In this document: positions 21,479 to 39,236 of the stretch, piece by piece
Layout of the letters: each line of letters opens with the position of its first letter
How positions within the stretch are numbered: position 1 is the stretch's first letter
From: a virus
Strand: one strand, 5' to 3'
Virus record (IMG/VR): IMGVR_UViG_3300047472_000155
Span: 64,001-128,000 of that record
Length of the DNA: 64,000 nucleotides
Position numbers and translations under genes: made by a program
The notes under the pieces: model-generated
What the model was told of the DNA's origin: nothing
Seen by the model: only the letters and a program-made list of their open reading frames with translations
Databases searched by the model: none

Positions 21479-22327
21479 ATGAATGAAGATTTTGTTAAAG
21501 ATTTTATTGCTTGCAATCAAGAAGTGACTTTACAAAAAGACGATACGGTTGATGATAAATTTGTTGACAAAATGTTAAATGTAAAAGCATATGTAGTGAA
21601 TGAAATGGCTACAGGAGATTTTGAAAAATTGGTGGACATCTTATTTAAAGAAGATATAAGTCCATTGTCATTAAATGATTCATATTTTGCTTCTTATAAG
21701 ATGTCAAAATTGGGGTACGGAAATTTCGGAAATGTTTATGAATTTGTTGGAAGTGATGGATACAGTTATGCAGTAAAAATTGCACGATTTGAAAAAGATA
21801 ATTACAGTGAACATGATGCAACTATTTTGTCAAAATTGCAGTCCATTAAAGGATACAATAAATTATTCTGTTACTTTGAAGGAACCTGCACATATGACTC
21901 ATGGGGAAATGTAAGAAAAAGAGATTTCCTTATAATGGTATCGAAAAAAGTGTATGGGTTTAGAATATCTGATGCCTTGAGAAATGAATTTTGCAAAAGA
22001 AACTTCTTTGACAACATTGGACCAGAAGTGATACAAGAGTTTCAAAAAACAATAAAAGAAACTTATTTAAATGGATATTTTCCAGATGATATTCATAGCG
22101 AAAATGTAATGGTGGATATGGATGAAAAGCAGGTTGTGATTGTTGATGTGGGATGCTATACACAGACAGAAGTAAAAGACGATATTTCAGAAGAAATGGT
22201 AAAAGATAAGGTATATGCATCAAGATTAATTGATCTGTGCGGACAATCAAATATTTTTTGTCGAGATGGTCAAAAATATCATGTGGAGGTGAAAACTAAA
22301 AATGACAGAGAAACTTATAAGTTTTAA
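21479..22327 (+). CDS. atypical protein kinase-like protein 1
   Basis: LGYGNFGNVY, YAVKI, DDIHSENVM, IVDVG. Confidence 0.85.
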   Translation: MNEDFVKDFIACNQEVTLQKDDTVDDKFVDKMLNVKAYVVNEMATGDFEKLVDILFKEDISPLSLNDSYFASYKMSKLGYGNFGNVYEFVGSDGYSYAVKIARFEKDNYSEHDATILSKLQSIKGYNKLFCYFEGTCTYDSWGNVRKRDFLIMVSKKVYGFRISDALRNEFCKRNFFDNIGPEVIQEFQKTIKETYLNGYFPDDIHSENVMVDMDEKQVVIVDVGCYTQTEVKDDISEEMVKDKVYASRLIDLCGQSNIFCRDGQKYHVEVKTKNDRETYKF

Positions 22328-23003
22328 AGTTACTACTCTCAATGGAATGGCGGATGGCGATTTTCAAAGATTACTTGCAATATTAATTGATGAAAAAGAA
22401 GGCATAACTTTCCACTCTCAGCATTGGGACATGGAACAAAGAGGATTAAAGCGTCTTGGTTTTGGTTGCTATGGTGATGTATATGAATTTATCGGAAGTA
22501 ATGGATATGAATATGCTGTTAAAATTTGTTCTTTTAAAAATAGTGCTCTTCAACACGATGGTGAAATTCTATCAAAACTTCAAGGAATTGTTGGATTTCC
22601 AAAACTATTCCTATATATTGATGGTGAATCCGAGACATCAGATTTCATGATAATGGTGTCACAGAAAATAAATGGTTTCACTATAGCAAAAATAGTTAAT
22701 CCTTGGAACGCTGATAAAATTTTGGTTCAACAATTCAAGGATACATTTGAGCCAGAAATTTTGAAGATATTTAATCAAACAATTCGTTCCTCATTCGCAA
22801 GAGGTTTACGTCCTGACGATGTTCATATTGAGAATGTAATGTATGATATCAACGAAAAAATCTTCTATGTTGTTGATGTAGGGAAATTTACAAATACAAA
22901 ATTCACAGAAGTTAGAGACAATGATATTTCAAGTTATAGAAATAACGCTAGAATCAGTGATCTTTTGCATATGGTAAATTATAAAAAAGAGGTGCTTGCA
23001 TAA
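22302..23003 (+). CDS. atypical protein kinase-like protein 2 (tandem paralog)
   Basis: LGFGCYGDVY, YAVKI, DDVHIENVM, VVDVG. Confidence 0.85.
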   Translation: MTEKLISFKVTTLNGMADGDFQRLLAILIDEKEGITFHSQHWDMEQRGLKRLGFGCYGDVYEFIGSNGYEYAVKICSFKNSALQHDGEILSKLQGIVGFPKLFLYIDGESETSDFMIMVSQKINGFTIAKIVNPWNADKILVQQFKDTFEPEILKIFNQTIRSSFARGLRPDDVHIENVMYDINEKIFYVVDVGKFTNTKFTEVRDNDISSYRNNARISDLLHMVNYKKEVLA

Positions 23004-23264
23004 TGGAAAATATAGTTAAAGTATCTATTAGTATTGAGGCTTCGGTTCACGTAACAGATCAAATGAAAGATAAAATAAAATCCTTAAATCCTTTTGCCTA
23101 CGAACAATATAAAAATGATGAAGAGGCATTGGCTATGATAGCTTTTTATGATGCTATGGACTTACTTATTTCAAAAAAATCTAATCTAAACGAACATGTG
23201 AAAGGGTTGAAAGTTGTAACCATATAACAATCGACATCAGATATTCCAACTTGACTGAACTACT

Positions 23265-23293
23265 ATCATAACATAAATTCAGAAAAAAGTCAA
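23265..23293 (-). promoter_or_regulatory. minus-strand sigmaA-type promoter facing the kinase operon
   Basis: reverse complement reads TTGACT-17 bp-TATGAT with an extended TG. Confidence 0.55.
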
Positions 23294-23409
23294 TCACTAA
23301 AATTCGATGGAACTCTGAGTTACAAAAAATACATCATATATATGTTGCATAAATCGTTGACTTTTTTACAAATGTAATATAAAATGAATATATAACAAAC
23401 GAGAGGAAA

Positions 23410-23868
23410 GTGAACCGATCAATGAATATCAAACAACAAGTCAAGGAAAATATTGTAAAGGCAATGAAGGAGAAGAATACTAAGCAACGCGACTTTCAAC
23501 GTATGTTGATGGATCGAATTCAGAAAAAAGAAAAGGAATTTCAGCGTGACATTACGGATGATGAAATTGTTGTATTGTTCCGCACATTCAAAAAGCAAAT
23601 TGAAGAAGAAGCATTTGCATATTTCCAATCTGGAAATGTAGTTAGACATGATGAATTGGTTCAAGATATCTCAGTGTTGTTTGCATATCTTCCACGTGAA
23701 ATGAGTGGAGAAGAGATTAAACATCTTGCGTCCACGGTTGTTAGCCAACTTGAAGGTCAAGGCGTATCTCCAAACAAGGGAAATGTCATGAAGTTGATCA
23801 TGCCTATGGTCAAGGGTAAGGCTGACAATAAACTCGTCATGGATATTGTGAATAGCATTTTTGCCTAA
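23410..23868 (+). CDS. YqeY/GatB-domain protein
   Basis: AMKEK...R...M....KEKE...TDDE.....KK..EE...YLP.EMS.EEI...KG.VMK..M..VKGKADNKLV. Confidence 0.9.
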   Translation: MNRSMNIKQQVKENIVKAMKEKNTKQRDFQRMLMDRIQKKEKEFQRDITDDEIVVLFRTFKKQIEEEAFAYFQSGNVVRHDELVQDISVLFAYLPREMSGEEIKHLASTVVSQLEGQGVSPNKGNVMKLIMPMVKGKADNKLVMDIVNSIFA

Positions 23869-23879
23869 ATAATTTCAAC

Positions 23880-23997
23880 ACGACAGGTTACAAAAGTTTT
23901 GCTGAACTAATATATAATTATAACTCTGTTAAATTATTAAGTAAATTAACAGAATCAGTTAATATATTAGTTCAGCGAAAAAAGCGTAACCTGTCGT
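23880..23997. repeat. 118-nt inverted repeat / long hairpin upstream of pnuC
   Basis: ACGACAGGTTAC/GTAACCTGTCGT, GCTGAACTAATATAT/ATATATTAGTTCAGC and TCTGTTAA/TTAACAGA stems. Confidence 0.85.
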
Positions 23998-24030
23998 AAA
24001 AACAAAACAATAATATTGGAGGAATTAACC

Positions 24031-24825
24031 ATGAAACTTAACAAAATACATGTGATTATTGCAAGTATTTTATTCTTCATCATTGGATATTTTACATCAT
24101 CTTCGGTGATTGAAATTGTTTCTGCCGTTTCCGGTTTGCTTTGTGTGTGGCTTGCCGCCAAAGAACACATATGGAATTATCCAATTGGATTCGTCAACAT
24201 AGCGGCGTTCATGTATGTGTTTTGGGGAGCTGGACTATATGCCGACTTTACACTACAAATTATCTTTGCGGCATTGAGCGCTTACGGATGGATATATTGG
24301 CTTAAAGGCAAAGGTGAAAAATCGGTTAAGCCAACAAAACGTGTAACGACTTCAGAAATTATTTTATACATTGTGATTGCAATTGTAGGAACATTCTTGT
24401 GGGCAAATGTCAATCTCAGAATTTTTAATGGTGTTGCATTGCCATACTTTGATGCATTCGTTGCTGTGTTAAGTGTAATTGCTCAAGTAATGTTGTCAAG
24501 AAAGCGGCTTGAGAATTGGTATGTATGGATTCTAGTAGATGTGTTATCCGTAGGAATGTATTGGTACAAAGACTTACACCTTGTATCTATCTTATATATC
24601 TTCTTCCTTGTCAATGCGGTATATGGATTGATTGCATGGAAAAAAGAATACAAAAAGTTTCAAGTTGAACAAACGGTAAATAAAATAATCAAAGAGACTC
24701 AAGCAAGTTCAGAAAATATCGGAAATGCTATGAAAACTCCGTGGCTTAAGTTTGTAGAAGAACATCAAAGAGCTTACTATACTACAGATGATCCAGAAAA
24801 TCCATTCAATAAAGGGGATAAGTGA
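24031..24825 (+). CDS. pnuC: nicotinamide riboside transporter PnuC
   Basis: multi-TM; E.....G..CVWL.AKE.IWNYP.G, LYAD..LQ, YGW..W, LP..DAF, AQ...SRK.LENW..WI.VD. Confidence 0.93.
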   Translation: MKLNKIHVIIASILFFIIGYFTSSSVIEIVSAVSGLLCVWLAAKEHIWNYPIGFVNIAAFMYVFWGAGLYADFTLQIIFAALSAYGWIYWLKGKGEKSVKPTKRVTTSEIILYIVIAIVGTFLWANVNLRIFNGVALPYFDAFVAVLSVIAQVMLSRKRLENWYVWILVDVLSVGMYWYKDLHLVSILYIFFLVNAVYGLIAWKKEYKKFQVEQTVNKIIKETQASSENIGNAMKTPWLKFVEEHQRAYYTTDDPENPFNKGDK

Positions 24826-25063
24826 TAATGGGAGAAATTATATTCAAAACTTATTCCCTTGGAGAAATCGTTGACAACTTAGGTGAAAATGAAATTGCTA
24901 TAAAAATTGACGGAACTAGTGTGGGGGATAGAATTTATAAGAACAATGAGACATGTCAGCTTAGACGAGTGAATATAGATTCTTGTATGGATATTCCATT
25001 GATGATTAATACTATTGAAGTTTTGGAAAAAAGTGTTTGGATCATTTTGAAGGAGGAATCCTA

Positions 25064-26104
25064 ATGAAGACAGGTTTAATTCTAGGCAAATTCATGCCTT
25101 TACATCTAGGGCATGAATACCTTATCAATACAGGACTAACAGCATGTGATGTGCTTCATGTTGTTGTATGTAGCCTATCAAGTGAACCGATTGATGGAAA
25201 TTTGCGTTACGAGTGGGTTAAACATAGATTTTGTCAAGAAATTTTGAAGGGACGCATTGTTGTTCATCACCTCAAAGAAGATTGGATGCCACAAGAACCA
25301 AGTGATTGCATCTCTGAGGAAGCTTTCTTTGGATGTTGGGCGGGTGTAATGGAGTCTTTGTGTAATACTAAGTTTGACGTTATGTTCGCATCAGAAATGT
25401 ATATACATCGTATGTCAAATCAACTTAATTGCACTCCTATTCTTGTTGACCTTGAGCGTAAGAATGTTCCTATTAGTGGAACAATGGTTCGTGACAATCC
25501 AATTGGAAATTGGAAGTTTATTAACAGGAATGTAAAAAAGTATTTTGCAAAGCGTGTACTCATTATTGGCGGTGAAAGCACCGGAAAGTCAATTATGACT
25601 CAAATGCTTGACGAATATTACGAAGACAAAGGTTATCTTACTTATGGTTCTCAAGAATATGCTAGAGATTATATTGACCAAGTTTATAATGGTAATATGG
25701 AAAAGTTAACATTTGACGACATCACACATTTTGGTCAATCACAAATGAGAGATGTTGATAGCGCTATACAAAGTGGATTCCAAATTGTATTTTCTGACAC
25801 GGACGCTATTGTGTCTAAGGTATTTCAACAAACATACTACGGAAAGACATCTCCTGAACTTGATGAAGTCATTGACAAAGAACAATGGGATTTGGTTCTA
25901 TTCCTTGAAAACGATGTACCATGGGTTGATGATGGTCAACGTAATCTTGGAGAGAAGAAGCAAAGAGAATTATTCCAACATAAACTCTACGTTGAAGTAT
26001 ATAACAAAAAGAAAATGCGTAATATCGTGTTTATTAACGGAGATTGGGAACAACGATTTGAAAAGGCAAAAAAATCTGTTGACAAGTTGCTTCAACTAAT
26101 GTAA
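25064..26104 (+). CDS. nadR: NadR-type NMN adenylyltransferase / ribosylnicotinamide kinase (no HTH)
   Basis: GKFMPLHLGH (HxGH), ISGT.VR, P-loop GGESTGKS, EYAR, DTD, PWVDDGQR. Confidence 0.93.
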   Translation: MKTGLILGKFMPLHLGHEYLINTGLTACDVLHVVVCSLSSEPIDGNLRYEWVKHRFCQEILKGRIVVHHLKEDWMPQEPSDCISEEAFFGCWAGVMESLCNTKFDVMFASEMYIHRMSNQLNCTPILVDLERKNVPISGTMVRDNPIGNWKFINRNVKKYFAKRVLIIGGESTGKSIMTQMLDEYYEDKGYLTYGSQEYARDYIDQVYNGNMEKLTFDDITHFGQSQMRDVDSAIQSGFQIVFSDTDAIVSKVFQQTYYGKTSPELDEVIDKEQWDLVLFLENDVPWVDDGQRNLGEKKQRELFQHKLYVEVYNKKKMRNIVFINGDWEQRFEKAKKSVDKLLQLM

Positions 26105-26485
26105 GATAAAATGAAAGAGCGAAAGGAATTGATGACTATATGAGTAAGAATGGCGATATTAAAATTGCTGGAGATGAAAGACACAAAGTTCCAAACTCAG
26201 AAGTAAGAGGATATATTAATCAATTAAAAAAAGATGAAAAGAAAAATTATTCTAGAAGCTTAGAATTGTTGAATGCGCAAATTTCTACATCTTCTGACGT
26301 ATTTGTCAGCATGTTGTTTTCATCTGTAGTCGGACTTATTGCAACACACTTCTACCCTCAATTTAACAGTGGAGGCTATTGGATTGCATTGTTTCTAAGC
26401 ACAGGTTTTTTAAATTCATTGAAACTTAACTATAAAAAAGTAATTAGAGATGACTATACCCCTAGTTGGAAAAAGGAGAAATAAT

Positions 26486-26731
26486 ATGACAACATTGACA
26501 GTACAACAAAAGGTAAAAAGCGTAATTGGAAAAATTAAAGGGATTCCATCAAAAGAGATTAGTATCAAAGATTCATTTGAAGACCTTGAATTTGATGGAT
26601 TTGATATGGATGAAATGATTGAAGTTCTTTCGGATTATTATGACATTGATCTTGAAGTTGAATTTAATTATGTAAAACATACACATGTAGGGCATGTCGT
26701 TAAGTTGGTAGAGAAGCTTTTTAATTGGTAG
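26486..26731 (+). CDS. acyl-carrier-protein-like protein lacking the phosphopantetheine serine
   Basis: V...I....GI...EI......F.DL..DGFD..E.I..L...YDI...VG.VV..VE; DGF replaces DSL. Confidence 0.65.
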   Translation: MTTLTVQQKVKSVIGKIKGIPSKEISIKDSFEDLEFDGFDMDEMIEVLSDYYDIDLEVEFNYVKHTHVGHVVKLVEKLFNW

Positions 26732-27071
26732 AAACAAATATAAAATAAAACGAAAGTGGTGGTAATATGCTTTGGTTAATAACAATCTGGGTTGTTTCAA
26801 TAATTTTATGTTTTTTCATTGGAAAAAAATCTTTATCTATTAATGACGATATGTTTGACGAAGAATTAGAAAATTTAATAATTTTTATTGTAGTTGGATT
26901 GATTCCATGCCTAAATTTGATCATATATTTAATAGTTCTTACATGTGTTTATTGCGAAGAAAGAGATTCAGGGATAAGTGATCTTGCAAAAGTGATCTTT
27001 CATGCAAAGAATGATAAGTGATGGCATTGGTAATATGTGGTTTGGAAATGAGAAATGGTCAATAAGGAGGA

Positions 27072-28205
27072 ATGAAAGTGTTAAATTTTACAAAAGAAGA
27101 TTACATGGAATATGTTGATCAAGGATATATCTCGCGTAAAGAACATCCAGAAGACTCAAATGTAGTTATTTTAAATTATACAGAAAAAACCGTATTTGAA
27201 CGCAAATGGAATGACATAACACTTCAATGCAGAGGTTTGATCTTGAATGAAGCGACATGTGAAGTGTTGGCAAGACCTTTCCCTAAGTTTTTTAATTATG
27301 GTGAAGCGAATGGTCTTAACATTTCTATTCCACAAACACAGCCAGAGATTACCATTAAGCATGACGGATCATTGGGAATCATGTATCGTCTACATGGTAA
27401 AATTCGATGGGCGACAAGGGGTAGTTTTGTGTCAGAACAGGCTAATATTGCACAAAGAATTTGGGATAAAGAATACGCCCAATATGAGCATTTAATTCCG
27501 AATTCCTTAACATTGTTGGCAGAAATAATTCACCCATTGACAAGAGTGGTTGTTAATTACAATGGACTTGAAGATTTGATTTTGATTGGCATTATTAATA
27601 GATTTGATGGATCAGATTACAATCATCTTACTATTACCAATTTTAGAAATCAATATGTTCCAATGCCAGTAACAGAAAAGATAGTGGGTAACGTTGATAA
27701 TATTATAGAAATCGCAAAAACCCTTGATCACAATGAAGAGGGGTTTGTATTGTGTTGGGACAATCCCAATTTTACATTTGACGAACAACAACCGTATCGC
27801 CTTAAGGTCAAGGGACAACAATACCTTGAAGTTCACCGTATCATTCATGGTATGAGCTTGAAGCAAAAAGTTGAGTCGTGGGCTAATGGCAACTTGAATG
27901 AATATATTGCATCATTACCAGAAGAGTTTCGTCCAGAGATCGAAGAAACTGCTTCCGAATGTGAGAATATTTATAGTTATATTATGATAAATGTAGCAAA
28001 AAAGTATCAAATAGCAGAAAAACGTGGACGCAAGAATTATGCTCTATGGATGCAAAAGAATGCTCCTAGCTATCTTCATGGTTTTTTATGGCTCAAATAT
28101 GATAATGAAATTGAACAAATGCAAGATAAAATTAAACAATATATTGTCAAAAATTATAGAGAATTGATTGGAGGAAATAACAGTGCAAGTGAGCAAATTG
28201 AATAA
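27072..28205 (+). CDS. RNA ligase 1 (T4 Rnl1-like)
   Basis: LNYT, W...T..CRGLI, RPFPKFFN, motif I KHDGSLG, ATRGSF.S.QA, EII, EGFV, KVK. Confidence 0.92.
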   Translation: MKVLNFTKEDYMEYVDQGYISRKEHPEDSNVVILNYTEKTVFERKWNDITLQCRGLILNEATCEVLARPFPKFFNYGEANGLNISIPQTQPEITIKHDGSLGIMYRLHGKIRWATRGSFVSEQANIAQRIWDKEYAQYEHLIPNSLTLLAEIIHPLTRVVVNYNGLEDLILIGIINRFDGSDYNHLTITNFRNQYVPMPVTEKIVGNVDNIIEIAKTLDHNEEGFVLCWDNPNFTFDEQQPYRLKVKGQQYLEVHRIIHGMSLKQKVESWANGNLNEYIASLPEEFRPEIEETASECENIYSYIMINVAKKYQIAEKRGRKNYALWMQKNAPSYLHGFLWLKYDNEIEQMQDKIKQYIVKNYRELIGGNNSASEQIE

Positions 28206-29229
28206 ACTTATAATCTTGGTTGGTATTCCTGGAAGTGGCAAAAGTACTAAGGCAAAAGAGATTTTGGATGAAAATCAAAATACAGTTTTAATTTCCTCAG
28301 ATGCAATTAGAGAAGAGTTGGGTGATGTAAATGATCAATCCAAGAACGATAAAGTTTTTGAGTTGTATTATAAACGTGCCGAAGAATCTCTTAAAGAAGG
28401 TAAAGATGTCATTCTTGATGCAACTAACACAACCGTAAAGTCAAGACGTATTGCAGTTGAACGATTGAAGAAACATGTAACAACCATTGAAGCTCATTAC
28501 TTCAATGTAGATTATTGGACTTCTTGGGGAAGAAATTGTAAAAGAGATAGATTCGTCCCAGAACATGTTATCGAAAGAATGTATAAATCTCTTCAAATTC
28601 CCACTTATGCAGAGGGATTTGATCAAATTGTATTTCACAATGAAAAAGAAAAAATGGATGAAAACAAGATAGTAACCTATAGTCGTAGTGGAATGATTTT
28701 CATATCTAGTTTGAAGGAACTTGAGGATTTCATTTCTTTGAATCAAAAATATGAGCGCATTATGGGAGAGCAGAAATATTTTGCACATGACTTACATGAT
28801 ATTTGGGAACTTCCACAAGATAATTCATTTCATTCTTTCAGCGTAAGTAGACATACTTATCATGTATGGAAATATATTCTTGAAAATTACAATGGGGAAG
28901 ATAAGATTGCCATGCTGTGGTCAGGATTGTTTCATGATGTTGGTAAAGCATTTTGCAAAAACTTCAAAAAATATGAAGATGGAACCGTATCACGATACGC
29001 TAACTTCATTGGACATGAGAATGTTTCTGCGCAACTTGCAGCAACACGTTTAAGTCAATACTATGATACAGAATTTGTGTTGAAGGTAGTTGAGATTATT
29101 CAATATCATATGCGTTTGATGCAAGTAGGGGATAGTGAAAAATCCATTAACAAATTGCAAAAATTTGTTGGCGTTGAGTTGATGAATAAACTTGAATTTT
29201 TCTATGAAGCAGATACGAGTGCAAAATAA
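28183..29229 (+). CDS. polynucleotide 5'-kinase fused to an HD phosphoesterase (Pnk-HD)
   Basis: GIPGSGKST, SSDAIR, DATN, R.R.VP..VI; C-terminal H...HDVGK...GHE..SA...HM...EAD. Confidence 0.9.
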   Translation: MQVSKLNKLIILVGIPGSGKSTKAKEILDENQNTVLISSDAIREELGDVNDQSKNDKVFELYYKRAEESLKEGKDVILDATNTTVKSRRIAVERLKKHVTTIEAHYFNVDYWTSWGRNCKRDRFVPEHVIERMYKSLQIPTYAEGFDQIVFHNEKEKMDENKIVTYSRSGMIFISSLKELEDFISLNQKYERIMGEQKYFAHDLHDIWELPQDNSFHSFSVSRHTYHVWKYILENYNGEDKIAMLWSGLFHDVGKAFCKNFKKYEDGTVSRYANFIGHENVSAQLAATRLSQYYDTEFVLKVVEIIQYHMRLMQVGDSEKSINKLQKFVGVELMNKLEFFYEADTSAK

Positions 29230-29247
29230 AAGGGAGATGAATATATA

Positions 29248-30135
29248 ATGTTCAAAAATATTAAGAGATATGATAGTTCAGAAGGCGTAGTTTGGAAGTA
29301 TGTCTTTGAAAAAGAAGATGCCGTAACAGAAGCAGTTCTTTATAAGTACAATACTTTTGAAGATAGAACAGTGGTATGTTGTTCTGTCCAGTCAGGATGT
29401 CCTATCGGATGTACATTTTGTGGTACTGGAAATAAGTTTATTAGAAATTTAACTCCAGATGAAATTGTAGCTCAAGTAACACATGTATTTAGTGATATGG
29501 ATATCAAGGACATAAATAGTAGATGTAAAAAATTGCAAATTATGTTCATGAGCATGGGTGAACCTATGACAAATTGGAAGAATGTCGAAGAAGCAATTTC
29601 ACAATTAAATAACCTTTATCCTAACGCTCAATTACTTATCTCTACTATCGGAGTAGATAATGATGCAATTTTCTCTAAAATAATTCAAACGTCAAAAAGA
29701 ATATCAAAAGTTGGACTTCAATTCTCTATTCATCAAGCTTTTGATACTGATAGAGATAATCTCATTCCATTTAAAAATAAAATGTCACTTAGAAAAATAA
29801 GAGACGCAGGAACAATTTGGAGCCAAGAAACAGGACGAAAAGTGTATTTAAATTATTGTGTTGATGGAAAGAATGTTTCCAAAGAACACTTAGACAGATT
29901 AAAAGACTTGTTCAGTCCTACAACTTTTAATTTTACATTTAGCGTTGTGTGTAGCGCAGATGAAACAATGAAAGATTCTGGATATAGAAATCATGAAAAG
30001 ATTAAAGAAGTAATGAGTTCATTTTTAGAGGATGGATACAATGTAAGAATGTTTGATCCTGCGGGACAAGATGATATTGGTGGTGGATGTGGTCAGTTGT
30101 GGTATGTTCAACAATGGATGAATGAATATAAATAA
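29248..30135 (+). CDS. RlmN/Cfr-family radical SAM RNA methyltransferase
   Basis: CCSVQSGCPIGCTFCGTG, RNL...EIV.Q, MSMGEP, ISTIG, LQFSIH, R..LIP, DIGGGCGQL. Confidence 0.9.
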   Translation: MFKNIKRYDSSEGVVWKYVFEKEDAVTEAVLYKYNTFEDRTVVCCSVQSGCPIGCTFCGTGNKFIRNLTPDEIVAQVTHVFSDMDIKDINSRCKKLQIMFMSMGEPMTNWKNVEEAISQLNNLYPNAQLLISTIGVDNDAIFSKIIQTSKRISKVGLQFSIHQAFDTDRDNLIPFKNKMSLRKIRDAGTIWSQETGRKVYLNYCVDGKNVSKEHLDRLKDLFSPTTFNFTFSVVCSADETMKDSGYRNHEKIKEVMSSFLEDGYNVRMFDPAGQDDIGGGCGQLWYVQQWMNEYK

Positions 30136-30154
30136 AAAAGGAGATGAAATAAAT

Positions 30155-31063
30155 ATGACACAGAAAAAGTTTACAGATGTGGTACGCATGGGTCATAAGA
30201 CAACACAAGGAGTATTTCATATTGATGATCCAATTACGATAACAGAGAAGATTGATGGTGCAAACGCAAGCTTTAAACGTGAAGGCGACAAGGTTCTTGC
30301 ATTCTCTCGTAACAATCATCTTGATGAATCAAGTGATCTTGGCGGATTCTATCAATGGGTTCAAGCTAATATTGACCCTACAAAGCTTTTGGAAGGAGTC
30401 ATTATGTTTGGAGAGTGGCTTAATCCTCACAAGGTTAAATATGCACCTGAACACACTAAAACATTCATCTTGTTTGCTATCTTCAATGAGTTTACACAAG
30501 AATATGTTAGTTTTTCTATGGTTAAAGATGAGGCAAGACGATTGAATCTCAAGCTTGTCCCTGTGTTTTATGAAGGTGTATATCAATCTTATGAACATCT
30601 TCAATCATTTGTAGGAAAAACTGAACTTGGTGGGACTCTTGGCGGCGAAACCACAGGTGAAGGAATTGTAGTAGTTAACTATGACTATAAAGATAGATAT
30701 GGTGATCAAGTTTTCACAAAGATGGTTGTTGATAAATTTGCTGAGGTTCAACATCAAAAATCTCCACGCGATCCCAATACCCCTGAAACTATTGAGGCTC
30801 TTTGGGTAAAAGATAATATGACAAAAGCCCGTATAGAAAAACTCTTGCTTAAATTAGTAGATGAAGGTATAATTGAAGAAGAGTTTGGCATTGAAGACAT
30901 GGGAACTATTCTTAAGAATATCAATCGGCGCTTGATTGATGATATGATTAAGGAAGAGGTTGACTATTTACCAGAAGGATATGAACTCAAAGAAATTGGT
31001 CGCGCTGTTGCTGGCAAATCTCCTAATATTATTAAGGAGATTATTAAAGAAAGACAAATGTAA
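30155..31063 (+). CDS. RNA ligase 2 family protein
   Basis: TEKIDGANAS, FSRN, FGEW, F..F.I, VPVFY.G, GEGIVV, K.V...F.E. Confidence 0.88.
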   Translation: MTQKKFTDVVRMGHKTTQGVFHIDDPITITEKIDGANASFKREGDKVLAFSRNNHLDESSDLGGFYQWVQANIDPTKLLEGVIMFGEWLNPHKVKYAPEHTKTFILFAIFNEFTQEYVSFSMVKDEARRLNLKLVPVFYEGVYQSYEHLQSFVGKTELGGTLGGETTGEGIVVVNYDYKDRYGDQVFTKMVVDKFAEVQHQKSPRDPNTPETIEALWVKDNMTKARIEKLLLKLVDEGIIEEEFGIEDMGTILKNINRRLIDDMIKEEVDYLPEGYELKEIGRAVAGKSPNIIKEIIKERQM

Positions 31064-31326
31064 TATAAAATGATTGGAGGAATTTATAATGGCAAAAGAA
31101 GTCGGAATTGGATTGACAACAAAGACAGTTTTGCATTTCTTAAACATACAAGACGATAGAGATGTGACTTTGATTACAAATGAGGTTAGTGTCAAAGATG
31201 TTTTGAAGATCATGATAGAAAATGACTTGCCTGTAAATTGTCTTATTAATAAGAAAATTAGACAGGTTAGAGATGGAATTTTTACAATAACAGCAATAAC
31301 CTTTGAATAAAATAGGAGGAATGAAT

Positions 31327-32559
31327 ATGATTCATATTAATATCCCCAAAAAAGTCAATCACATTATGGATGTAATTGGCGACTATAGTCATTCAGTGTA
31401 TGTCGTAGGAGGATGCATAAGAGATTCAATCTTAGGCATCACTCCTAAAGATTGGGACATTGCCACAAGTATGCGTCCAGAAATCGTAATAGCGGCTTTC
31501 AATAACCTTGGATATACCGTTGTCCCTACCGGATTGAAGCATGGAACAGTGACAATCGTAATTGATGGAGAACATTTTGAGGTTACAACATATCGCAAAG
31601 ATGGAGTATACTCAGATGGTCGAAGACCAGATGATGTTGTGTTTACACATGACATTAACGAGGACTTGTCACGAAGAGACTTTACTATTAATGCTATGGC
31701 ATACAATGAAGATGGATTAATTGATCCATTCAATGGCTACCATGATCTTCAAGCTAAATTCATTAGAGCGGTTGGTAATCCATCAGAAAGATTCAAGGAA
31801 GATGGGTTACGTATGTTACGTGCAATTCGTTTTTCGTCAACACTTGGATTTCATATTGCTCCTAGCACATATCGTGCTATTTGCGAAAAATATCGTTTAC
31901 TAAAGGATATTTCTGTTGAGCGTAAACGCGAAGAATTATATAAAATCTTGCTTTCCGACAATGCTCATTATGGAATTAGACATCTCATTAACACAGGATT
32001 AATGGATTATATCATTCATGAAATTAGTGATATGACTTTTCCTAAATTGGATGAGATTCCACAATATTATGGCTTGCGTTTAGCTTATTTGTTACTTGAT
32101 TTCCATGAAGATAAGGTAAGAGAGATTTTGAATAAATTGAAAGTTGACAATGAAACAAAACGTTTAGTGATAAATGGAATCAATGCTTATGATCAAATTG
32201 ACGATAAGCTAAAATTAACAAGATCAGATATGAAGATGATTATTCGCGTTTATGGATCACACGAATTGTGGGGTGCGTTATTGATTGCCAAAACAATACA
32301 TGAAAGTAAACATGGTAGATATAATGAAATGATGCGTCAATTTCTTAATATCATGGAAAACAATAAGAATGGGAAAGAACCTATTTGGATTAAGGATTTA
32401 GATGTCAAAGGCAATGACTTGATTGATCTTGGCTTTGAAGGTAAGCAAATAGGAGAAATGCTAAATCGTATTCTTGATTTTGTGACAATTCATCCTATAG
32501 AAAACGATAAAAGTAAATTAGTTCAACAAATTGAAGGAGGATATTTTAATTATGTATAA
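31327..32559 (+). CDS. cca: CCA-adding tRNA nucleotidyltransferase
   Basis: VGGCIRD, DWDIAT, G.KHGTV, EVTTYR.DG.Y.D.RRP, EDL.RRDFTINAMA, RF.ED.LRMLRAIRF. Confidence 0.93.
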   Translation: MIHINIPKKVNHIMDVIGDYSHSVYVVGGCIRDSILGITPKDWDIATSMRPEIVIAAFNNLGYTVVPTGLKHGTVTIVIDGEHFEVTTYRKDGVYSDGRRPDDVVFTHDINEDLSRRDFTINAMAYNEDGLIDPFNGYHDLQAKFIRAVGNPSERFKEDGLRMLRAIRFSSTLGFHIAPSTYRAICEKYRLLKDISVERKREELYKILLSDNAHYGIRHLINTGLMDYIIHEISDMTFPKLDEIPQYYGLRLAYLLLDFHEDKVREILNKLKVDNETKRLVINGINAYDQIDDKLKLTRSDMKMIIRVYGSHELWGALLIAKTIHESKHGRYNEMMRQFLNIMENNKNGKEPIWIKDLDVKGNDLIDLGFEGKQIGEMLNRILDFVTIHPIENDKSKLVQQIEGGYFNYV

Positions 32560-33215
32560 GTTTCTTGGTGTACTATTGATTATTGTTGGGGTTTTGGCAT
32601 TCTTATATCTTGGAATTGGACTTGGAATCATCGGTTTTGTTCACATCTTTACAGGAGTAGGATCATTGTTTTGGAACATTTGTCTTATCGCTTTCCGTGG
32701 AGTAATTGCATTGATTGTTGGAGGATTAGCGGTGTTTGGTGGATGTTACTTGTGGGCAATAGGTGAAAAATGATATTTATAATTATGATTTCGATTATGG
32801 CGGCTGTGTGTAATGCAATTAGAGATACAAGTCATTTGCCTGAGGGGAAAGTATTTTTACCAATAATGTTACATGAATTCATTTCTATTGTTGTAATAAT
32901 TCTTGCTCTTATTGTGGGCAATTGGATCAAGTGTTTATAAGTGTAAGATAAAATAAATTCTCTTGACTTTATCCGGTCAAGAGAATATAATACATATATA
33001 AGATCAAACAAGGGAGATAAAGGAGATAAGACTATGGCATTTTACGGCAAGGTTATTGATGGCAAGCCAAGCATTGTTGTAGCAAACGGAATCAGCAAAG
33101 GCAATCACATGTCTCTGGAATGGTTTATTAAAATCAAGCAAGGGTTGAAAGAGAGAATGACGAATGAAAGATAAAATAAAATCTGATTACAAATAAAAAA
33201 TGGAGTTGATTAAAA

Positions 33216-33680
33216 ATGAGTACCCATGAAAGAGTAATGGAGTTCATCAATCTTATCAAAGGTCACAAAAATGCAAAAGAGTGTTATGATGCTCATCGAA
33301 TACTGAATAAAATATATCGAAATGGAAATTGCTACATGTTTGCTAAAGCGTTACAATTCGTATTTCCTCAAGCTGTGCTTTATAATCAATACGAATTTGG
33401 ATATCATATAGTTGCATGTTGCAATGGAGTCTTTTATGATATCACAGGAATGCTCAAAGACCAAGATTTGATCAACTATTCAATTTTGACGGAAACTCAA
33501 GAAGAGTGGGCAAGAACATGGTGTTATTCAGAATATCATGATCGTGCTTATGGTCTTCATGACCATGAACACAATAGAATTGATTCTTTAAAAGGTTTAA
33601 AGCTTAAACCTTCAAATGATGGATGGGATGTTGATTCAAAAGAGGTAAGAGAAGAAGTAAAGGAAATTGAATACACATGA
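33216..33680 (+). CDS. hypothetical protein with a possible Cys-His-Asp (transglutaminase/papain-like) triad
   Basis: GNCYMFA...HIV......YDITG. Confidence 0.5.
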   Translation: MSTHERVMEFINLIKGHKNAKECYDAHRILNKIYRNGNCYMFAKALQFVFPQAVLYNQYEFGYHIVACCNGVFYDITGMLKDQDLINYSILTETQEEWARTWCYSEYHDRAYGLHDHEHNRIDSLKGLKLKPSNDGWDVDSKEVREEVKEIEYT

Positions 33681-34913
33681 CGGAGTTAATGCGTCATAGT
33701 GGAAATTTTATTGAGAAACGTTGCGAGAAGTGTGGTAGTCATATTATTCAAAATCTTTGGGGTCAAAGATGGTGTATGAGCATTCGTAAATGTGGATGGT
33801 TTGATTCTACTATAACGAATGATTTACCTCTTCCACAAGTCGAAGATAAAACGAAAAAAGTTGTTAAACCTCCAAAAAAAGGAAGACCAAAAGGAACTGT
33901 TAAGAAAGGATAGTGATTATGTGGGCATCACTAAATCAGGCTTGGAGTTCATGTATTTGAAAAGAAAAGAAAATAGTTTATTTGTTCCACGCGAAGCGTT
34001 GGTGAGAGCAGTTGAATTGATTGAAGAAGAATATGAAGATAGTAGTAAATATAACAAATATGTTTACCAAACATTGAAAAGAATCGAAACATGGAAAAAA
34101 TATGATGAAAGAAAATTGATGATTGTGAAAAATTCATCTATTGTAGCCTTCCATTTAACAGGAAGTTACACATTAGTTGAAGGAGAACCAATAAGCATTC
34201 AACAAGAATCAAAAAACTTTTATTTTGGAATGGGATACTACTCTAGCTTTATGGATGTATTACATCTTAAAGAGTCATTGCGTGAACCAACAGAAGAAGA
34301 AATTAAAAAATATAGTTAATAGAAAGAGGCGATACAAATGTCGGTGGCATATCTTGACATGACAATGCATCAATTATCCAATATTCTTGCTAACGTATCT
34401 CAAAAACCAAGCGAACGTGGATGCAATGACGCATTGGATAGTATTAGACGTATGCTTGAAGAGTATCAACGTGCAGGTGGCAAAGTGAATCTTACAGATT
34501 ATCGTGAAACTAGAAGGGTGTGGTAATATGAACGATAGAGAGATTTTTAGTAAGATTCGTGCATGGGAACTACGTGCGGGAGAGTCGTTTGTTGATTATT
34601 GGGGTTCAAACTTAAATACACCTAATTTCATGTTTTGGTGTGTTGGCAAGGGTATATTGACACAAGCCCAATTTAATGTATGGGAACGTGACTATACATC
34701 AGAAGGAATATATGCTGGACTAACTGCTAATGACCCCAATTATTTTATTGACGGTGACACTACCGAAGGATTGCCATATGCTATCGGAGACATGGACAAT
34801 GAACAATTCTATGGATTAATCGTATTATCTCAATTTATTGCAGATAGCATGATCTATCAAAAGAGGTTGATCGACTTCTTGAATGACGAAGAGGATGATG
34901 AATAATTTATAAA

Positions 34914-35279
34914 TTGATTATTGCTGGAGGTAGAGATTTCGAAGACTTTGATCTCCTTGAGAAAGAAGTAAAACTTTTTCTTAAAGGTAAAAGACCAAGT
35001 GAAATAGAGATTGTTAGTGGGGCGGCAGATGGTGCGGATACGTTGGGAGAAGATTTTGCCAAGAAGTATAAGTGTAAACTTCACAGGAAGAGAGCGAATT
35101 GGACTAAATACGGAAATGCAGCAGGACCAATACGCAACAAAGAAATGGCTATTTACGCGAGTCAAGGCGAAACTAAAGGTGGATGCATTTGCTTTTGGGA
35201 CGGGAAAAGTAAAGGTACTAAAAACATGATTGGTCTTGCTAAAAAATACGGATTAGAATTAAAAGTGATTATGTATTGA
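34914..35279 (+). CDS. SLOG-superfamily DUF2493 (YspA/cpYpsA-related) protein
   Basis: IIAGGRDF, IVSG.A.GAD.LGE, ANW.KYG.AAGPIRN.EM, FWDG.SKGTK.MI. Confidence 0.9.
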   Translation: MIIAGGRDFEDFDLLEKEVKLFLKGKRPSEIEIVSGAADGADTLGEDFAKKYKCKLHRKRANWTKYGNAAGPIRNKEMAIYASQGETKGGCICFWDGKSKGTKNMIGLAKKYGLELKVIMY

Positions 35280-35293
35280 AAGGATGATTATTA

Positions 35294-36022
35294 ATGGCTA
35301 TCATTTTTATTGATGATGAAATTCGTGGACAATTAGCTAATTCCATTAGACTTACAAGAGACTTGTATAGTAAACCAAGTAATATCCTGTTGGCTCACCC
35401 TAATGGAATTGATTATATCGTATTGAAGAATAGGCATTATTATAATCACCAAAAACAAGTTCGTCCATCGGATATTAATGAATATACTAAGTTAAATGTA
35501 GATGTTGTTAGATATACTTTTATTCGTCTAGGATTTATTTTAGGGGCAAAAGAGTTAAATTTAAACGGCATGAATTTGCTGATTGATGAGGATTTTTTGA
35601 ATCCTAATGGAAAGAAAATTTTAAAGGAGATGATTAGCGTGAGTGAGAATAATTTTGAAATTGGAGATAAAGTAGTGCCAATTGGAGATAGTATATATAT
35701 TTCATTGGAAGAAGCTGTTGCTTGGGAAGAAGCAAATGAAATCAATCAACCGTTCCTTTATGTTGTTGGATTTAGTAAAGAAAAAGGAAAAAAATCGGTT
35801 AATGTAACTGCATATTTAAATGGTGATGGACATCGGAGTTACTTTGAAAAAGAAAATTTAAAGCATTATGAAGAACCAAAAACAGGAGTCAAGGAATTGG
35901 AGGAAGTAGAAAAAGAAACTCATGATGATCCTCTTGAATGCACAATTGAGGAATTAAGTATTCTTATTAAAACAGGAATTCTTCAACCCCAAGATATTGT
36001 ATTGGTCAAACGTATAAAATAG
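35294..36022 (+). CDS. protein with a C-terminal paralog family B domain
   Basis: FEIGDKVVP....W......Q.FLYV....F..E.L..Y.E...I.EL..LI..GI....D. Confidence 0.7.
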   Translation: MAIIFIDDEIRGQLANSIRLTRDLYSKPSNILLAHPNGIDYIVLKNRHYYNHQKQVRPSDINEYTKLNVDVVRYTFIRLGFILGAKELNLNGMNLLIDEDFLNPNGKKILKEMISVSENNFEIGDKVVPIGDSIYISLEEAVAWEEANEINQPFLYVVGFSKEKGKKSVNVTAYLNGDGHRSYFEKENLKHYEEPKTGVKELEEVEKETHDDPLECTIEELSILIKTGILQPQDIVLVKRIK

Positions 36023-36282
36023 TGAATACAAGTAATAGATAAAACGAAAGGAATGGGAAGCATGAGCATAATGAATATAGCAGATATCGTTTTTGAGCAA
36101 ACACATGACTTTAAATTCATTATTAGAAAAAGCAAAGTAAGTAATGTTGGTCATACGTGTAGTTCAGGTGTGGTAGAAGATGCATTTAATAGTTGGGTAT
36201 ATAGAGTTTTGATAATTGATTCAGAAAACAATATTTTATCAGATAACAAGGTGGAACGAAAAGGAATTGCAAAAATACTGGA

Positions 36283-36306
36283 TAGATAAAACCAAACTTT
36301 TATCTA
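36283..36306. repeat. palindromic site 4
   Basis: tagataaaa ccaaac ttttatcta; overlaps the stop of 36053..36289. Confidence 0.9.
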
Positions 36307-36327
36307 TCACTCAAAAAGGAGGATACT

Positions 36328-36651
36328 ATGAGCGAGATTTCATATATGAATATTGAAGAATTCTTCAATGATGGCTATTTGCAAGAAGTCAATAGAAGAT
36401 TCTTTCATCCTCTTGGATTGGCTCTAGAAGTTAATACTCATGAGGACGGAACCAAGACTTTAGGTGGTATTTGGGACTATCGTGAAGACCCAGAAGGAAT
36501 AAGGTTTTCTGATGGTATTACAAAACTTGAGAAGTTTAAAAGTCGTGCAGAGAGATTCGATGAATTATTTCAAAAAAGACTACTTGAGCGCTATAACCTT
36601 CTAGGATATGGAATTCAAGAGCCTACTAATGGAGATGATCAAAATGTATAA
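36328..36651 (+). CDS. conserved phage hypothetical protein
   Basis: GYLQEVNRRFFHPLGLALEV...GGIWDYREDPEG; AGGAGG RBS just after site 4. Confidence 0.75.
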   Translation: MSEISYMNIEEFFNDGYLQEVNRRFFHPLGLALEVNTHEDGTKTLGGIWDYREDPEGIRFSDGITKLEKFKSRAERFDELFQKRLLERYNLLGYGIQEPTNGDDQNV

Positions 36652-36955
36652 AAAAGGTGATAAAGTAAGACCAATAGCAAAGACTGTAGGAATGTCTTGG
36701 GAAAATTGTTGTGCTAAAGCCGAAATGGAAAGACTAAATCAAGATTTCCTTTATATTACCCGCGATTATCTAAACAATAGGTTTGGCTGCAATGTTATGG
36801 ATTGTGATGGTGTTTTGAGCGAATTTGCTTTTAGTGATCTTGAGCCATATGAAGAGTATCCAAATCTCATAAAAATAAACAGAGATGTGTTACTTGAATT
36901 GTTGCAAAAAGACATTTTCAAGGAAGATATTCGGTTTTACGTGTCTAAGCCATAG
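36644..36955 (+). CDS. paralog family B member ending in palindromic site 5
   Basis: MYKKGDKVRP..K..G.......QDFLYIT...F...DL.PY.E; TAG stop = start of the site. Confidence 0.75.
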   Translation: MYKKGDKVRPIAKTVGMSWENCCAKAEMERLNQDFLYITRDYLNNRFGCNVMDCDGVLSEFAFSDLEPYEEYPNLIKINRDVLLELLQKDIFKEDIRFYVSKP

Positions 36956-36976
36956 ATAAAATGTGAATTTTATCTA
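36953..36976. repeat. palindromic site 5
   Basis: tagataaaa tgtgaa ttttatcta. Confidence 0.9.
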
Positions 36977-39236
36977 TGAGTAAAAAATTGGAATGGAGAG
37001 TGACTTACATGTGGTGGTGGATACTTGGTCTTGCCATATTTATTACTATAATATATATCATAATCTCGTTTATTCTAAGCAAAATTTTCAAACAGGATTA
37101 TAATACATCACAAATTGCATCATTTCTGATATCTGTTACTATTATTCCGTTGTTATTTTGTATTGATATGTCAAATCAAAGGTATGAATATTACAACACC
37201 AGAACTCTCTCAGCCATGCAAGATAGTCAATCATATGTTGTTTCTAGATATGATGTTGAATCGGAGCTTAAGTATCTTTACATGTACAAAACCGGAGACG
37301 ATACGTATCGTGCAAGTCAAGCACCATCAAATAGATCAACTATTCACATATCTACAAAAGACTATAAAGTTGAGATTTATAAAGAAAAAAAGAAAATCAA
37401 ATTCTTTAACTTGATTCTTCCAAGTCAGTATGTTGATGCGTATAAATTTGAGTTTTATATTCCGAAAGATGGTCTTATTTCAGAGTTCAAGGTTGATTTA
37501 AAATAAGCAAGGAGATGAATAACAGTGGACATAAATAGCCTTTCGCTAGAAAAGAAGAAAGAGATTTACAATCAATTGCTTATTATATTGGCATCAAGAA
37601 TTATGAGATTAATAATCTTTCTGTGAAAAATGGTAAAGTTGTAAAGTATTCTCGCGGATATGGTCCATATGATGATGAATGGATTGAAGTTTCCGCAAAT
37701 AGACAAGGTAATGCAATTGAGAAGTTTAAGCTTATGGTGGATTTGGATAAAAAAATAGAAGAAGAAGTACATCAAAAATATTTGAATCTAAATGACACAA
37801 TTAATAAGTTGGCATTAAAATATTCAGAAGAAGACTTGAGAATGGACTAAAAGGAGGATTAAAATGGAAATTATACACAAGACAAAAAAAGTACTTAGAC
37901 TTATTGATGAACAAACGCCAGTTTATGTTGTTGACGGAAGGGAGTTTATAGACGAAAAAACAGCATTAACATTTGAAAGAAGAAGTAAAGTTAGATTTGT
38001 TGAGCTTAAAGGAATTTCGCAAATAGGGATAAGTGATCTTACTAACTGCAAAGAAGATATTCACGACTTAGACATAAGAGTTGAAGGAGATGAAGTTTAC
38101 CCTTGCATAATTGGAGTTGAAAAAGATAGAGACTCAGCATATAAAATTGATTTAAGCGATATAGATGAACTTATCAATGATCTTCAAGTTTTTCGAAGTG
38201 AAGTTTATCAATTCATCTTTAAAAAGGGGAGAGATTAACAATGACAACAACTAAGCGTCAAGTAATGTATGACGAATACGGAAATATTACACATATGTCA
38301 CGTGAAGTTGAGGTTAAAACACCTATTCAAGTATTAACTGAATTTTGTATTGGTCTTGCAATTGTAGGTCTTATTGTTGTGTTAGTATAAGACAAGGAGA
38401 GATACTATGTCAACGATTCCAGATAGAGCGCTATGGTTCCTTGAAAGCGAAGTAAAAAGCTTGTTTGTAGGATATTCATGCAAAAGAGTGTCTAGTCATC
38501 TTGAATATGTAGAATGTACATCTAAAATGTTAATGTCATTCAAGTCTTTTTGTGGAGTCAAGTATAAAAAGCAATATGCTACTATGTCTAAAAAAATTTT
38601 ATTTTCAAATACTTTCATTAAGAACTATAAATGGAGAGAATTTATGATCAAGTGTGCAGTTGACGAAAACAAGAAAAAGATTTACTGGCAAGCTGAAAGA
38701 ACTTACTCAGAAATGGAGTGGTCATAATAATGACTGCAGTTGAATTACCACTATTTGATGAAGAGATGCACAAGAAAAGTTTGCTTAAATATTACCTTAA
38801 AGAAATTGAAAAGCTAGGATTTGTTACAAGTATAACGGAAAAAGATAACACTACATTTGCTCTAATTGTTGACCCACTTGATATTGATCTCGATTCGACA
38901 AAAGAGATTCCAGATTATGGAGATTTATTTGAATTAGATGAGTTTATTGACATGTGTGAATCTGGAAGTCTTATTGATTATGATGGTTATGGAGATATTG
39001 TTTATAATAACAAGATTATTCATGAACTTATATCTCCATCTGATGTAGATATTTATAAAAATCAACTTGAAGACTTACAGGAAAAGCTTGGCAAAATACA
39101 GATTATGTGGTATAATAAGTAGTATAAGGAGAGTGAAAGATAAAATCATATTATAGAATTAGGGCGATAAGCCCTATATTTTTTTGACAACCGGGTCTGA
39201 GCCAGTGACATTTGAAAAATAAATGATCATCAGCTA

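Follow-up and report, generated by a model that had tools for sequence, protein, structure and literature searches.

Do the densely packed RNA-processing genes of a tRNA-rich phage form a single RNA repair operon, and does the radical S-adenosylmethionine (radical-SAM) methyl synthase encoded among them belong to it? The question is raised by positions 27072–32559 of a 64,000-nucleotide stretch of DNA (hereafter the window), which comprises bases 64001–128000 of the 166,838-bp IMG/VR virus record IMGVR_UViG_3300047472_000155, rated complete by CheckV; the window has a GC content of ~32% and carries nearly all of its genes on the + strand. A preliminary description had read the locus as a five-enzyme operon for tRNA and rRNA rescue, made up of an Rnl1-type RNA ligase, a polynucleotide kinase with an HD domain (Pnk-HD), an RlmN-like protein, an Rnl2-type RNA ligase and a CCA-adding enzyme. 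We found that all five identities hold by profiles, motifs and folds, and we consider it likely that the gene row makes up a compact island for tRNA repair and maintenance, probably transcribed as one unit. The five-enzyme unit itself did not survive comparison with relatives, from which the RlmN-like gene appears to be an optional cassette in the island and not a fixed step of one pathway. The phage is a tRNA-rich, 167-kb relative of the Bacillus Joanripponvirinae, and its host, judged only from protein similarity to Bacillus phages, is probably Bacillus.

Five RNA-processing enzymes are encoded in one tight gene row

The open reading frames (ORFs) of the row were identified by agreement of three independent profile libraries (Pfam, PHROG and NCBIfam), and catalytic motifs were found intact in all five enzymes. 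The first gene (27072–28205, + strand, as are all genes of the row) encodes an Rnl1-type ligase of the T4 RnlA family, which matched PF09511 (2.8e-18; 67 bits against a cut-off of 28.3) and phrog_562 (4.5e-64, with profile positions 10–372 of 377 aligned). Its motifs I (K96-HDGS), IV (E223-G) and V (K245-V-K247) align to T4 K99, E227, K240 and K242, and its scores fell below the cut-offs for the C-terminal tRNA-specificity domain PF20819 (16.7 bits, cut-off 27) and for the equivalog TIGR02308 (69.7 bits, cut-off 242). The second gene, Pnk-HD (28168–29229), overlaps the Rnl1 stop and joins an N-terminal AAA_33 domain (1.9e-21; 5′-OH kinase) to a C-terminal HD domain (3.8e-07; 30.8 bits against 22). 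Among solved kinases it comes nearest to the Clostridium thermocellum Pnkp kinase domain (1.6e-11), to which the P-loop GIPGSGKS (residues 19–26) and SSD45 (Asp45) align; the HD part, which contains H229 and H256-D257, also aligns with the HD segment of TIGR02692, a CCA model for actinobacteria (1.7e-10). By these domains and motifs the protein is best described as an HD-type polynucleotide kinase-phosphatase of the RM378 PNKP type, with a predicted 3′-phosphatase and 2′,3′-cyclic phosphodiesterase activity. A T4-type HAD (DxDxT) phosphatase was considered and rejected, as no HAD match was obtained and the C-terminal half is HD. The third gene (29248–30135) encodes a short phage RlmN/Cfr-like radical-SAM methyl synthase of 295 aa, recognized through TIGR00048 and treated separately below.

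The fourth gene (30122–31063) encodes the second ligase, which matched PF09414 (2.3e-23; 83.7 bits against 27) and phrog_548 (4.3e-61) and carries motif I as EK32IDGAN, invariant in its relatives, together with GEGIVV and FTK189. Sequence searches of the PDB with this protein (phmmer and a 5-sequence profile) returned no T4 Rnl2 chain, only Rnl3 and Rnl5 ligases with weak E values of 0.07–0.3. Its structure was modelled with AlphaFold2 (AF2) from ten homologues (predicted local distance difference test, pLDDT, 82), and Foldseek ranked full-length T4 Rnl2 (2HVR and 2HVQ; E 1.5e-11, 336–347 aligned columns) above the Rnl5, Rnl1 and Rnl3 ligases; the template modelling (TM) score against T4 Rnl2 reached only 0.48, as would fit a difference in how the domains are oriented. 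Because the best structural matches are full-length T4 Rnl2, the protein can be assigned, from its architecture and modelled fold, as an Rnl2-type ligase that is distant in sequence. The proposal that two ligase types are present is thus borne out, by PF09511 and motifs for the one and by PF09414 and fold for the other.

The last enzyme (31303–32559) belongs by its domains and motifs to the class II CCA-adding tRNA nucleotidyltransferases, and among these to the Bacillota type; its head, neck, body and tail domains were all matched (PF01743, 4.6e-37; PF12627, 3.1e-17; PF13735, 5.2e-09), and it has no HD domain. It reached 285.8 bits against the Bacillota-type equivalog PRK13299, whose cut-off is 290; the solved structures closest to it are those of the CCA-adding enzymes 6IBP (8.5e-56) and 1MIV, and its head motifs read GGCIRD (36–41), DWD (50–52), RRDFTINA (124–131) and EDGLRMLRAIRF (166–177). 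The five enzymes were described as contiguous, and they do stand in a tight row, but an extra ORF (orf78, 31074–31310; likely start ATG 31089, giving 73 aa) separates Rnl2 from the CCA gene. It had no match in Pfam, PHROG or NCBIfam, and the nearest relative has a syntenic copy with 62% identity. Since this conserved ORF of 73–78 aa sits between Rnl2 and CCA, the row consists of six genes.

All six genes are co-oriented, with spacing from a 38-nt overlap to a gap of ~25 nt, and a GGAGG-type ribosome-binding site precedes each gene. True starts are probably GTG 27078 for Rnl1, GTG 28183 for Pnk-HD and ATG 30155 for Rnl2, and gaps of 18–19 nt flank the RlmN-like gene on both sides (Pnk-HD before, Rnl2 after). 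A promoter/terminator scan revealed no convincing internal terminator within the row. Just after the row, at 32957–32991, a palindromic hairpin (11-bp stem at 32957–32986) coincides with the best sigma-70-like promoter of the region (TTGACT-17-TATAAT at 32963–32991, 11/12 positions matched), which is likely, though only suggestively, a transcription-unit boundary. The layout is therefore operon-like in its shared strand, short gaps and uninterrupted course.

Four enzymes are co-conserved and the RlmN-like gene occupies a cassette slot

When 50,697 phage records were searched by megablast with the 5.5-kb cluster, no match was obtained, and when IMG/VR was scanned for single-protein patterns of Pnk-HD, Rnl2 and CCA, little more than one close relative came up. 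The Rnl2-type protein matched 336 phage records, all of them phages of Bacillota, and its best matches (~50% identity) were large Bacillus phages. The nearest relative, an uncultured, complete genome of 170,562 bp with 18 tRNAs (G001), has the order YqeY-PnuC-NadR-orf114-ACP-like-Rnl1-PnkHD-X-Rnl2-orf78-CCA-orf80 at 62–86% amino-acid identity. Here X, directly upstream of Rnl2, is a 247-aa GIY-YIG homing endonuclease (L017:9078–9821), and the G001 genome as a whole contains no RlmN-like gene. DNA homology between the window and G001 ends at 29231, two bases past the Pnk-HD stop, and restarts at 30130, shortly ahead of the ribosome-binding site of Rnl2. A GIY-YIG homing endonuclease also lies directly upstream of Rnl2 in Bacillus phage Izhevsk (L080:6248–6985).

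Because G001 keeps the four other enzymes with a GIY-YIG gene in the same position, Rnl1, Pnk-HD, Rnl2 and CCA are co-conserved, and the RlmN-like gene is a cassette in a position that can also be taken by homing endonucleases. The overlapping genes for Rnl1 and Pnk-HD are conserved as a pair, which the Rnl2-type and CCA genes follow in the same order in G001. Co-conservation, expected of all five genes in the preliminary description, thus extends to four of them. Among 29 long records bearing an RlmN-like gene, 21 are without Rnl1 and 9 without an AAA_33 kinase. Strict dependence of the RlmN-like enzyme on the repair enzymes is therefore rejected, as many carriers are without Rnl1 or Pnk.

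The most conserved part of the cluster extends well beyond the nearest relative. Adjacent Rnl1-PnkHD pairs were found in IMG/VR contigs (L020, L021, L169, L170 and L177) at 38–46% identity and in the cultured phages vB_BanS_Nate, Izhevsk (both Joanripponvirinae) and Thrax5 (unclassified), with Rnl2 lying 3–4 kb downstream of the pair. In the three cultured phages the order is Rnl1, Pnk-HD (annotated as 'AAA ATPase' or 'polynucleotide kinase'), a small ORF (missing in Thrax5), ClpP, DNA ligase, two or three small ORFs and Rnl2, preceded in Izhevsk by the GIY-YIG gene mentioned above. Downstream of Rnl2 follow DUF1273 in all three, YqeY in Nate and Izhevsk, and PRPP synthetase with NAPRTase in Izhevsk only. 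Rnl1, Pnk-HD, downstream Rnl2, YqeY and genes for the salvage of nicotinamide adenine dinucleotide (NAD) thus stand in the same block as in the window, at 38–54% identity. These phages differ from the window in that ClpP, DNA ligase and small ORFs split Pnk-HD from Rnl2, an RlaP-like nucleotidyltransferase (NTase) stands upstream in place of the downstream CCA enzyme, and the RlmN-like gene is missing; no Bacillus phage was among the listed RlmN-like matches in phage records.

The RlmN-like protein belongs to a phage-only clade of radical-SAM methyl synthases

Compared with cellular RlmN and Cfr, the RlmN-like protein has the same core and lacks one domain. It matched TIGR00048 (7.4e-35) with 120.5 bits against a cut-off of 290, aligned only from profile position 74, and the Cfr models at ~3e-30 with 101–106 bits against cut-offs of 468–550. 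The ~75-residue N-terminal domain of cellular RlmN/Cfr is absent from every phage member, all of which begin just before the first core beta-strand. What is shared is the radical-SAM core: C44, the CxxxCxxC cysteines C51/C55/C58 and C281 do not vary among 16 family members, C44 and C281 being the mechanistic cysteines that correspond to E. coli C118 and C355, and the MGEP and GCGQL motifs are common to RlmN/Cfr as well. The AF2 model (pLDDT 87.8) superposed best on the RlmN structures 6FZ6, 3RFA and 5HR6, the last an RlmN tRNA complex, with TM scores of 0.77–0.81 over the full length, and fitted Cfr 9P0P more poorly (TM 0.63).

A quick maximum-likelihood phylogeny (IQ-TREE) placed the phage proteins in one long-branched clade with 100% support, outside cellular RlmN and Cfr. 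An ordinary RlmN or Cfr orthologue is rejected on these grounds, that is, the separate clade, scores below the cut-offs and the missing N-terminal domain. RlmN makes m2A2503 in 23S rRNA and m2A37 in tRNA, and Cfr makes m8A2503; since the phage clade falls outside both, orthology cannot give the substrate or the C2/C8 chemistry. We describe the protein as a radical-SAM adenine methyl synthase of a phage-only clade, predicted from its conserved residues to be catalytically intact.

The family is very large. Its members are of ~295 aa, the best 120 clusters of 5,682 matches are 61–85% identical and often lie on contigs of 100–370 kb, and a metagenome scan recovered a single contig. No paper describing this short phage family was found in literature searches, to whose scope Burroughs & Aravind 2016 did not belong, and both 'radical SAM' and 'RlmN' are absent from the text of the jumbo-phage RNA-repair survey PMC7824862. 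As a separate observation, a 642-aa RlmN-like ORF at L012:4801–6729 (same contig as L147) contains an intein with a LAGLIDADG homing endonuclease, whose insertion point corresponds to query residue 58, the last Cys of CxxxCxxC.

The RlmN-like gene recurs near tRNA, repair and NAD-salvage genes in other phages

In IMG/VR, 266 loci match the RlmN-like protein, of which the best 80 (63 clusters at 90% identity) were examined with home-made profiles. An RNA-repair or NAD-salvage gene lies within 8 kb of the RlmN-like gene in 34 of these loci, and tRNA genes lie within the same distance in 29. In about ten phages that otherwise differ (L091, L122, L130, L132, L135, L147, L149, L152, L153 and L161; also L002), the RlmN-like gene stands right beside NAMPT and/or PRPP synthetase, as it does in Vibrio phage PS17B-2. 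Repair genes adjoin it as well. Pnk-HD stands directly upstream in L009/L091, an island that also holds a metallophosphoesterase, NADAR, Thg1, a PHA02142-type ligase, a Pol-beta NTase and Pth2, and Rnl1 stands directly upstream in L160. The closest homologue (85%) lies on a 476-kb compost megaphage contig (L178, RCUH01000011.1), where an RlaP-like NTase is directly upstream and Thg1 is 1.2 kb downstream; a tubulin/FtsZ-like protein, a CTP-synthase-like glutamine amidotransferase and a VWA protein are encoded nearby. The RlmN-like gene of Stenotrophomonas phage ANB28, like that of several clades, sits inside a tRNA array.

A whole-record distance test was applied to the 29 long RlmN-like-bearing records with a 10-kb threshold. 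An AAA_33 kinase lay within this distance in 8 of 20 records (expected 2.7, P ~0.002) and Rnl1 in 4 of 8 (expected 0.86, P ~0.006), with P values that ignore the shared ancestry among phages, while the ribonucleotide reductase control lay that close in 1 of 11 (expected 1.2). Solely on the grounds that its gene keeps recurring within tRNA arrays and close to Pnk and Rnl1 genes, the likeliest substrate of the RlmN-like enzyme would be tRNA, possibly A37.

Repair and maintenance of tRNA as the likely role of the island

How would these enzymes act together? Following the precedents of T4 Pnkp/Rnl1, of the RM378 and Runella HD/Pnk enzymes, and of phage RNA repair as counter-defence (PMC7824862), we propose that a host ribonuclease would cut tRNA to leave a 2′,3′-cyclic phosphate and a 5′-OH. 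The HD domain would then open the cyclic phosphate and remove the 3′ phosphate, and the kinase would phosphorylate the 5′ end, after which Rnl1 would reseal breaks in single-stranded loops and Rnl2 would seal nicks held in duplex regions. The CCA enzyme would complete the 3′ ends of the 20 CCA-less phage tRNAs and could rebuild trimmed ends, and the RlmN-like enzyme would most plausibly methylate an adenine in tRNA. A repair role, as originally proposed, is reasonable for the four-enzyme core, which is a compact version of the known phage RNA-repair repertoire; rebuilding of 3′ ends has a simpler competitor in maturation. The phage carries 22 tRNA genes, on the minus strand at genome positions 28456–39171 and outside the window, and a CCA end is encoded only in tRNA-Gln and tRNA-Trp. 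Because 20 of the 22 transcripts need CCA added, the CCA enzyme probably serves tRNA maturation at least as much as repair.

The arrangement resembles known systems in parts. With the T4 pathway of Pnkp and Rnl1 against PrrC it shares Rnl1 motifs I, IV and V and a 5′ kinase joined to a 3′ phosphoesterase, and with T4 Rnl2 it shares a second ligase of Rnl2 fold. It differs in that T4 Pnkp uses a DxDxT (HAD) phosphatase where the window protein uses an HD domain, and in that the window cluster has, in a tight row, a CCA enzyme and an RlmN-like methylase in addition. The T4 repair genes are dispersed in the genome, and T4 tRNAs depend on the host CCA enzyme. Kinase and HD phosphoesterase are joined in one protein in the HD-type PNKPs, namely phage RM378 PNKP and the HD-Pnk of a Runella slithyformis cluster (PMC1997131, PMC6097658), although the Runella order is HD then Pnk and that of the window Pnk then HD. 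In Runella, too, the ligase ORF overlaps that of the healing enzyme, and a methyltransferase gene lies nearby, which encodes a Rossmann-type MTase-HIT and not a radical-SAM enzyme as in the window. Rnl1, Rnl2, RtcB, Pnk, phosphoesterases, CCA, Thg1, RlaP and NAD salvage have been surveyed as phage counter-defence (Iyer et al., 2021; PMC7824862); relative to that jumbo-phage repertoire, the present phage, at 167 kb, is under the jumbo threshold and carries an RlmN-like gene unmentioned there.

Several observations weigh against the island reading, whose basis is sequence, fold, synteny and precedent. Pnk and these ligases are able to act on DNA ends as well. The CCA enzyme clusters with the ligases only in the window phage and G001, and in the Joanripponvirinae a DNA ligase and ClpP come between Pnk-HD and Rnl2. 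For the RlmN-like gene, 46 of the 80 loci have no panel match within 8 kb, and its strongest immediate neighbour elsewhere is NAMPT/PRPP synthetase, outweighing any repair gene. As for the operon, counts in the promoter/terminator scan are no higher than in shuffled sequence, so that co-transcription of the row is plausible from its layout.

Of the other explanations, the one that fares best holds that the island mainly serves biogenesis of the 22 phage tRNAs, by CCA addition and A37 methylation, while the ligases and Pnk-HD join other RNA or DNA ends. It draws on the CCA-less tRNA genes just described, on the presence of A37 in 20 of the 22, on the RlmN-like genes situated inside tRNA arrays, and on the fact that 27 of the 29 RlmN-like-bearing records have tRNAs, up to 54 each. 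The RlmN-less G001 carries tRNAs too, and so do large phages generally. We regard this explanation as unlikely: Rnl1 with Pnk/phosphatase is the classic tRNA break-repair pair and is conserved more strongly than the rest of the cluster, neither introns nor splits that would call for a ligase were seen in the tRNAs, and G001 has its 18 tRNAs yet no RlmN-like gene.

A second explanation makes all five enzymes one pathway that heals, seals and immunises, the RlmN-like enzyme methylating the repaired tRNA or rRNA against re-cleavage as Hen1 does. The position of its gene exactly between Pnk-HD and Rnl2 speaks for such coupling, as do the recurrence of the Pnk-HD/RlmN-like adjacency in the unrelated record L009, the Rnl1 and the RlaP-like NTase with Thg1 found beside it in L160 and L178, and the significant closeness to Pnk and Rnl1 genes in the distance test. 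Methylases in repair clusters also have precedent in the Runella MTase-HIT and in Pnkp1-Rnl-Hen1, where RNA is healed, sealed and then methylated so that it resists re-cleavage (PMC4411300). Compared with Pnkp-Hen1 systems, however, the window is without Hen1, its methylase is of another class and is not conserved together with the repair genes, and nothing points to a complex; across phages the RlmN-like gene is only loosely co-localised with repair genes and does not show the co-conservation of a Hen1-type methylase. The intact four-enzyme cluster of G001, with a homing endonuclease in the slot, and the many carriers without Rnl1 or kinase argue in the same direction. A single five-enzyme pathway of this kind therefore seems improbable to us. 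We give similarly little credence to a more specific form, in which the short phage RlmN-like protein would be a tRNA anticodon-loop methyl synthase, acting at C2/C8 of A37 or a neighbouring adenine, with which large phages, as a counter-defence, would mark phage or repaired tRNAs and so hide them from host anticodon nucleases; if true, the enzyme would be a radical-SAM analogue of Hen1 'repair with immunity', wired into the Rnl1/Pnk-HD/Rnl2/CCA operon.

It is very unlikely that the row is merely a generic accessory or early-gene island in a permissive region where large phages gather auxiliary genes and mobile cassettes, functionally uncoupled and with Pnk-HD and the ligases perhaps processing DNA ends. 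In favour of this view, the slot turns over between RlmN-like and GIY-YIG genes, DNA ligase and ClpP are interleaved in the Joanripponvirinae, and the type of NAD-salvage gene beside the region varies from phage to phage. Against it, the Rnl1-PnkHD pair with its overlap is kept down to 38–46% identity, all the enzymes act on RNA, specifically tRNA, ends, and the ribonucleotide reductase control shows no such clustering.

Neighbouring genes

Upstream of the island, YqeY (GatB C-terminal-like; 23410–23868, + strand; PF09424, 1e-22) had been suggested as a possible further member. It recurs beside ligase genes: homologues lie near Rnl1 or Rnl2 in L021, L169, L170, L176, L079 and L080, with the L176 copy immediately preceding Rnl2 and the L021 copy lying 1.2 kb before Rnl1, and the arrangement of Rnl1-PnkHD, Rnl2 and YqeY is kept in cultured Bacillus phages. 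In the window, however, it is not contiguous with the cluster but 3.2 kb upstream, with PnuC, NadR and three small ORFs between, and it is best regarded as a candidate accessory. Upstream of YqeY, at 21479–23003, lies a protein-kinase-like ORF (Pkinase, 1.3e-07) with an overlapping downstream ORF without Pfam match.

PnuC (24016–24825, +; PF04973, 1.1e-53) and a NadR-like gene (25037–26104, +; AAA_28, 1.8e-25) form an NAD-salvage pair whose synteny is kept in the nearest relative. Outside the window, at genome positions 142015–143735, the phage has a distant NAMPT-like gene and also a second NadR/NMNAT-like fragment; since these sit elsewhere in the genome, it may have two NAD-salvage routes. 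Three small ORFs (26140–27021, +), among which PP-binding and phrog_5934 were matched, precede Rnl1. Two of them, orf114 and an acyl carrier protein (ACP)-like protein, are kept in the nearest relative at 69% and 83%. The ACP-like protein (26450–26731, +) has a weak PP-binding match (2.9e-4, 21.5 bits) and is probably not modifiable, because it reads FDGFDMDE where the phosphopantetheine serine motif is expected. The third is a small, strongly hydrophobic two-helix membrane ORF (26767–27021, +). At the other end the row closes with two small hydrophobic ORFs (32531/32552–32773 and 32776–32940, +), and the downstream hydrophobic ORF orf80 is 85% identical in the nearest relative; small, strongly hydrophobic ORFs thus flank the enzymes on both sides. 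A YAcAr/SLOG-family protein is encoded further downstream (34914–35279), and no Rfam RNA element was found in window positions 22000–35000.

Implications

RNA repair by phages is a recognised answer to tRNA-cleaving defences, and the cluster described here is among the most compact natural arrangements of the whole repair toolkit, with close relatives in tractable cultured Bacillus phages. The RlmN-like family, highly conserved and with hundreds of members in large phages, is the part most worth an experiment. Because the otherwise syntenic clusters of the window phage and G001 differ by exactly the RlmN-like gene, the two phages provide a natural plus/minus pair.

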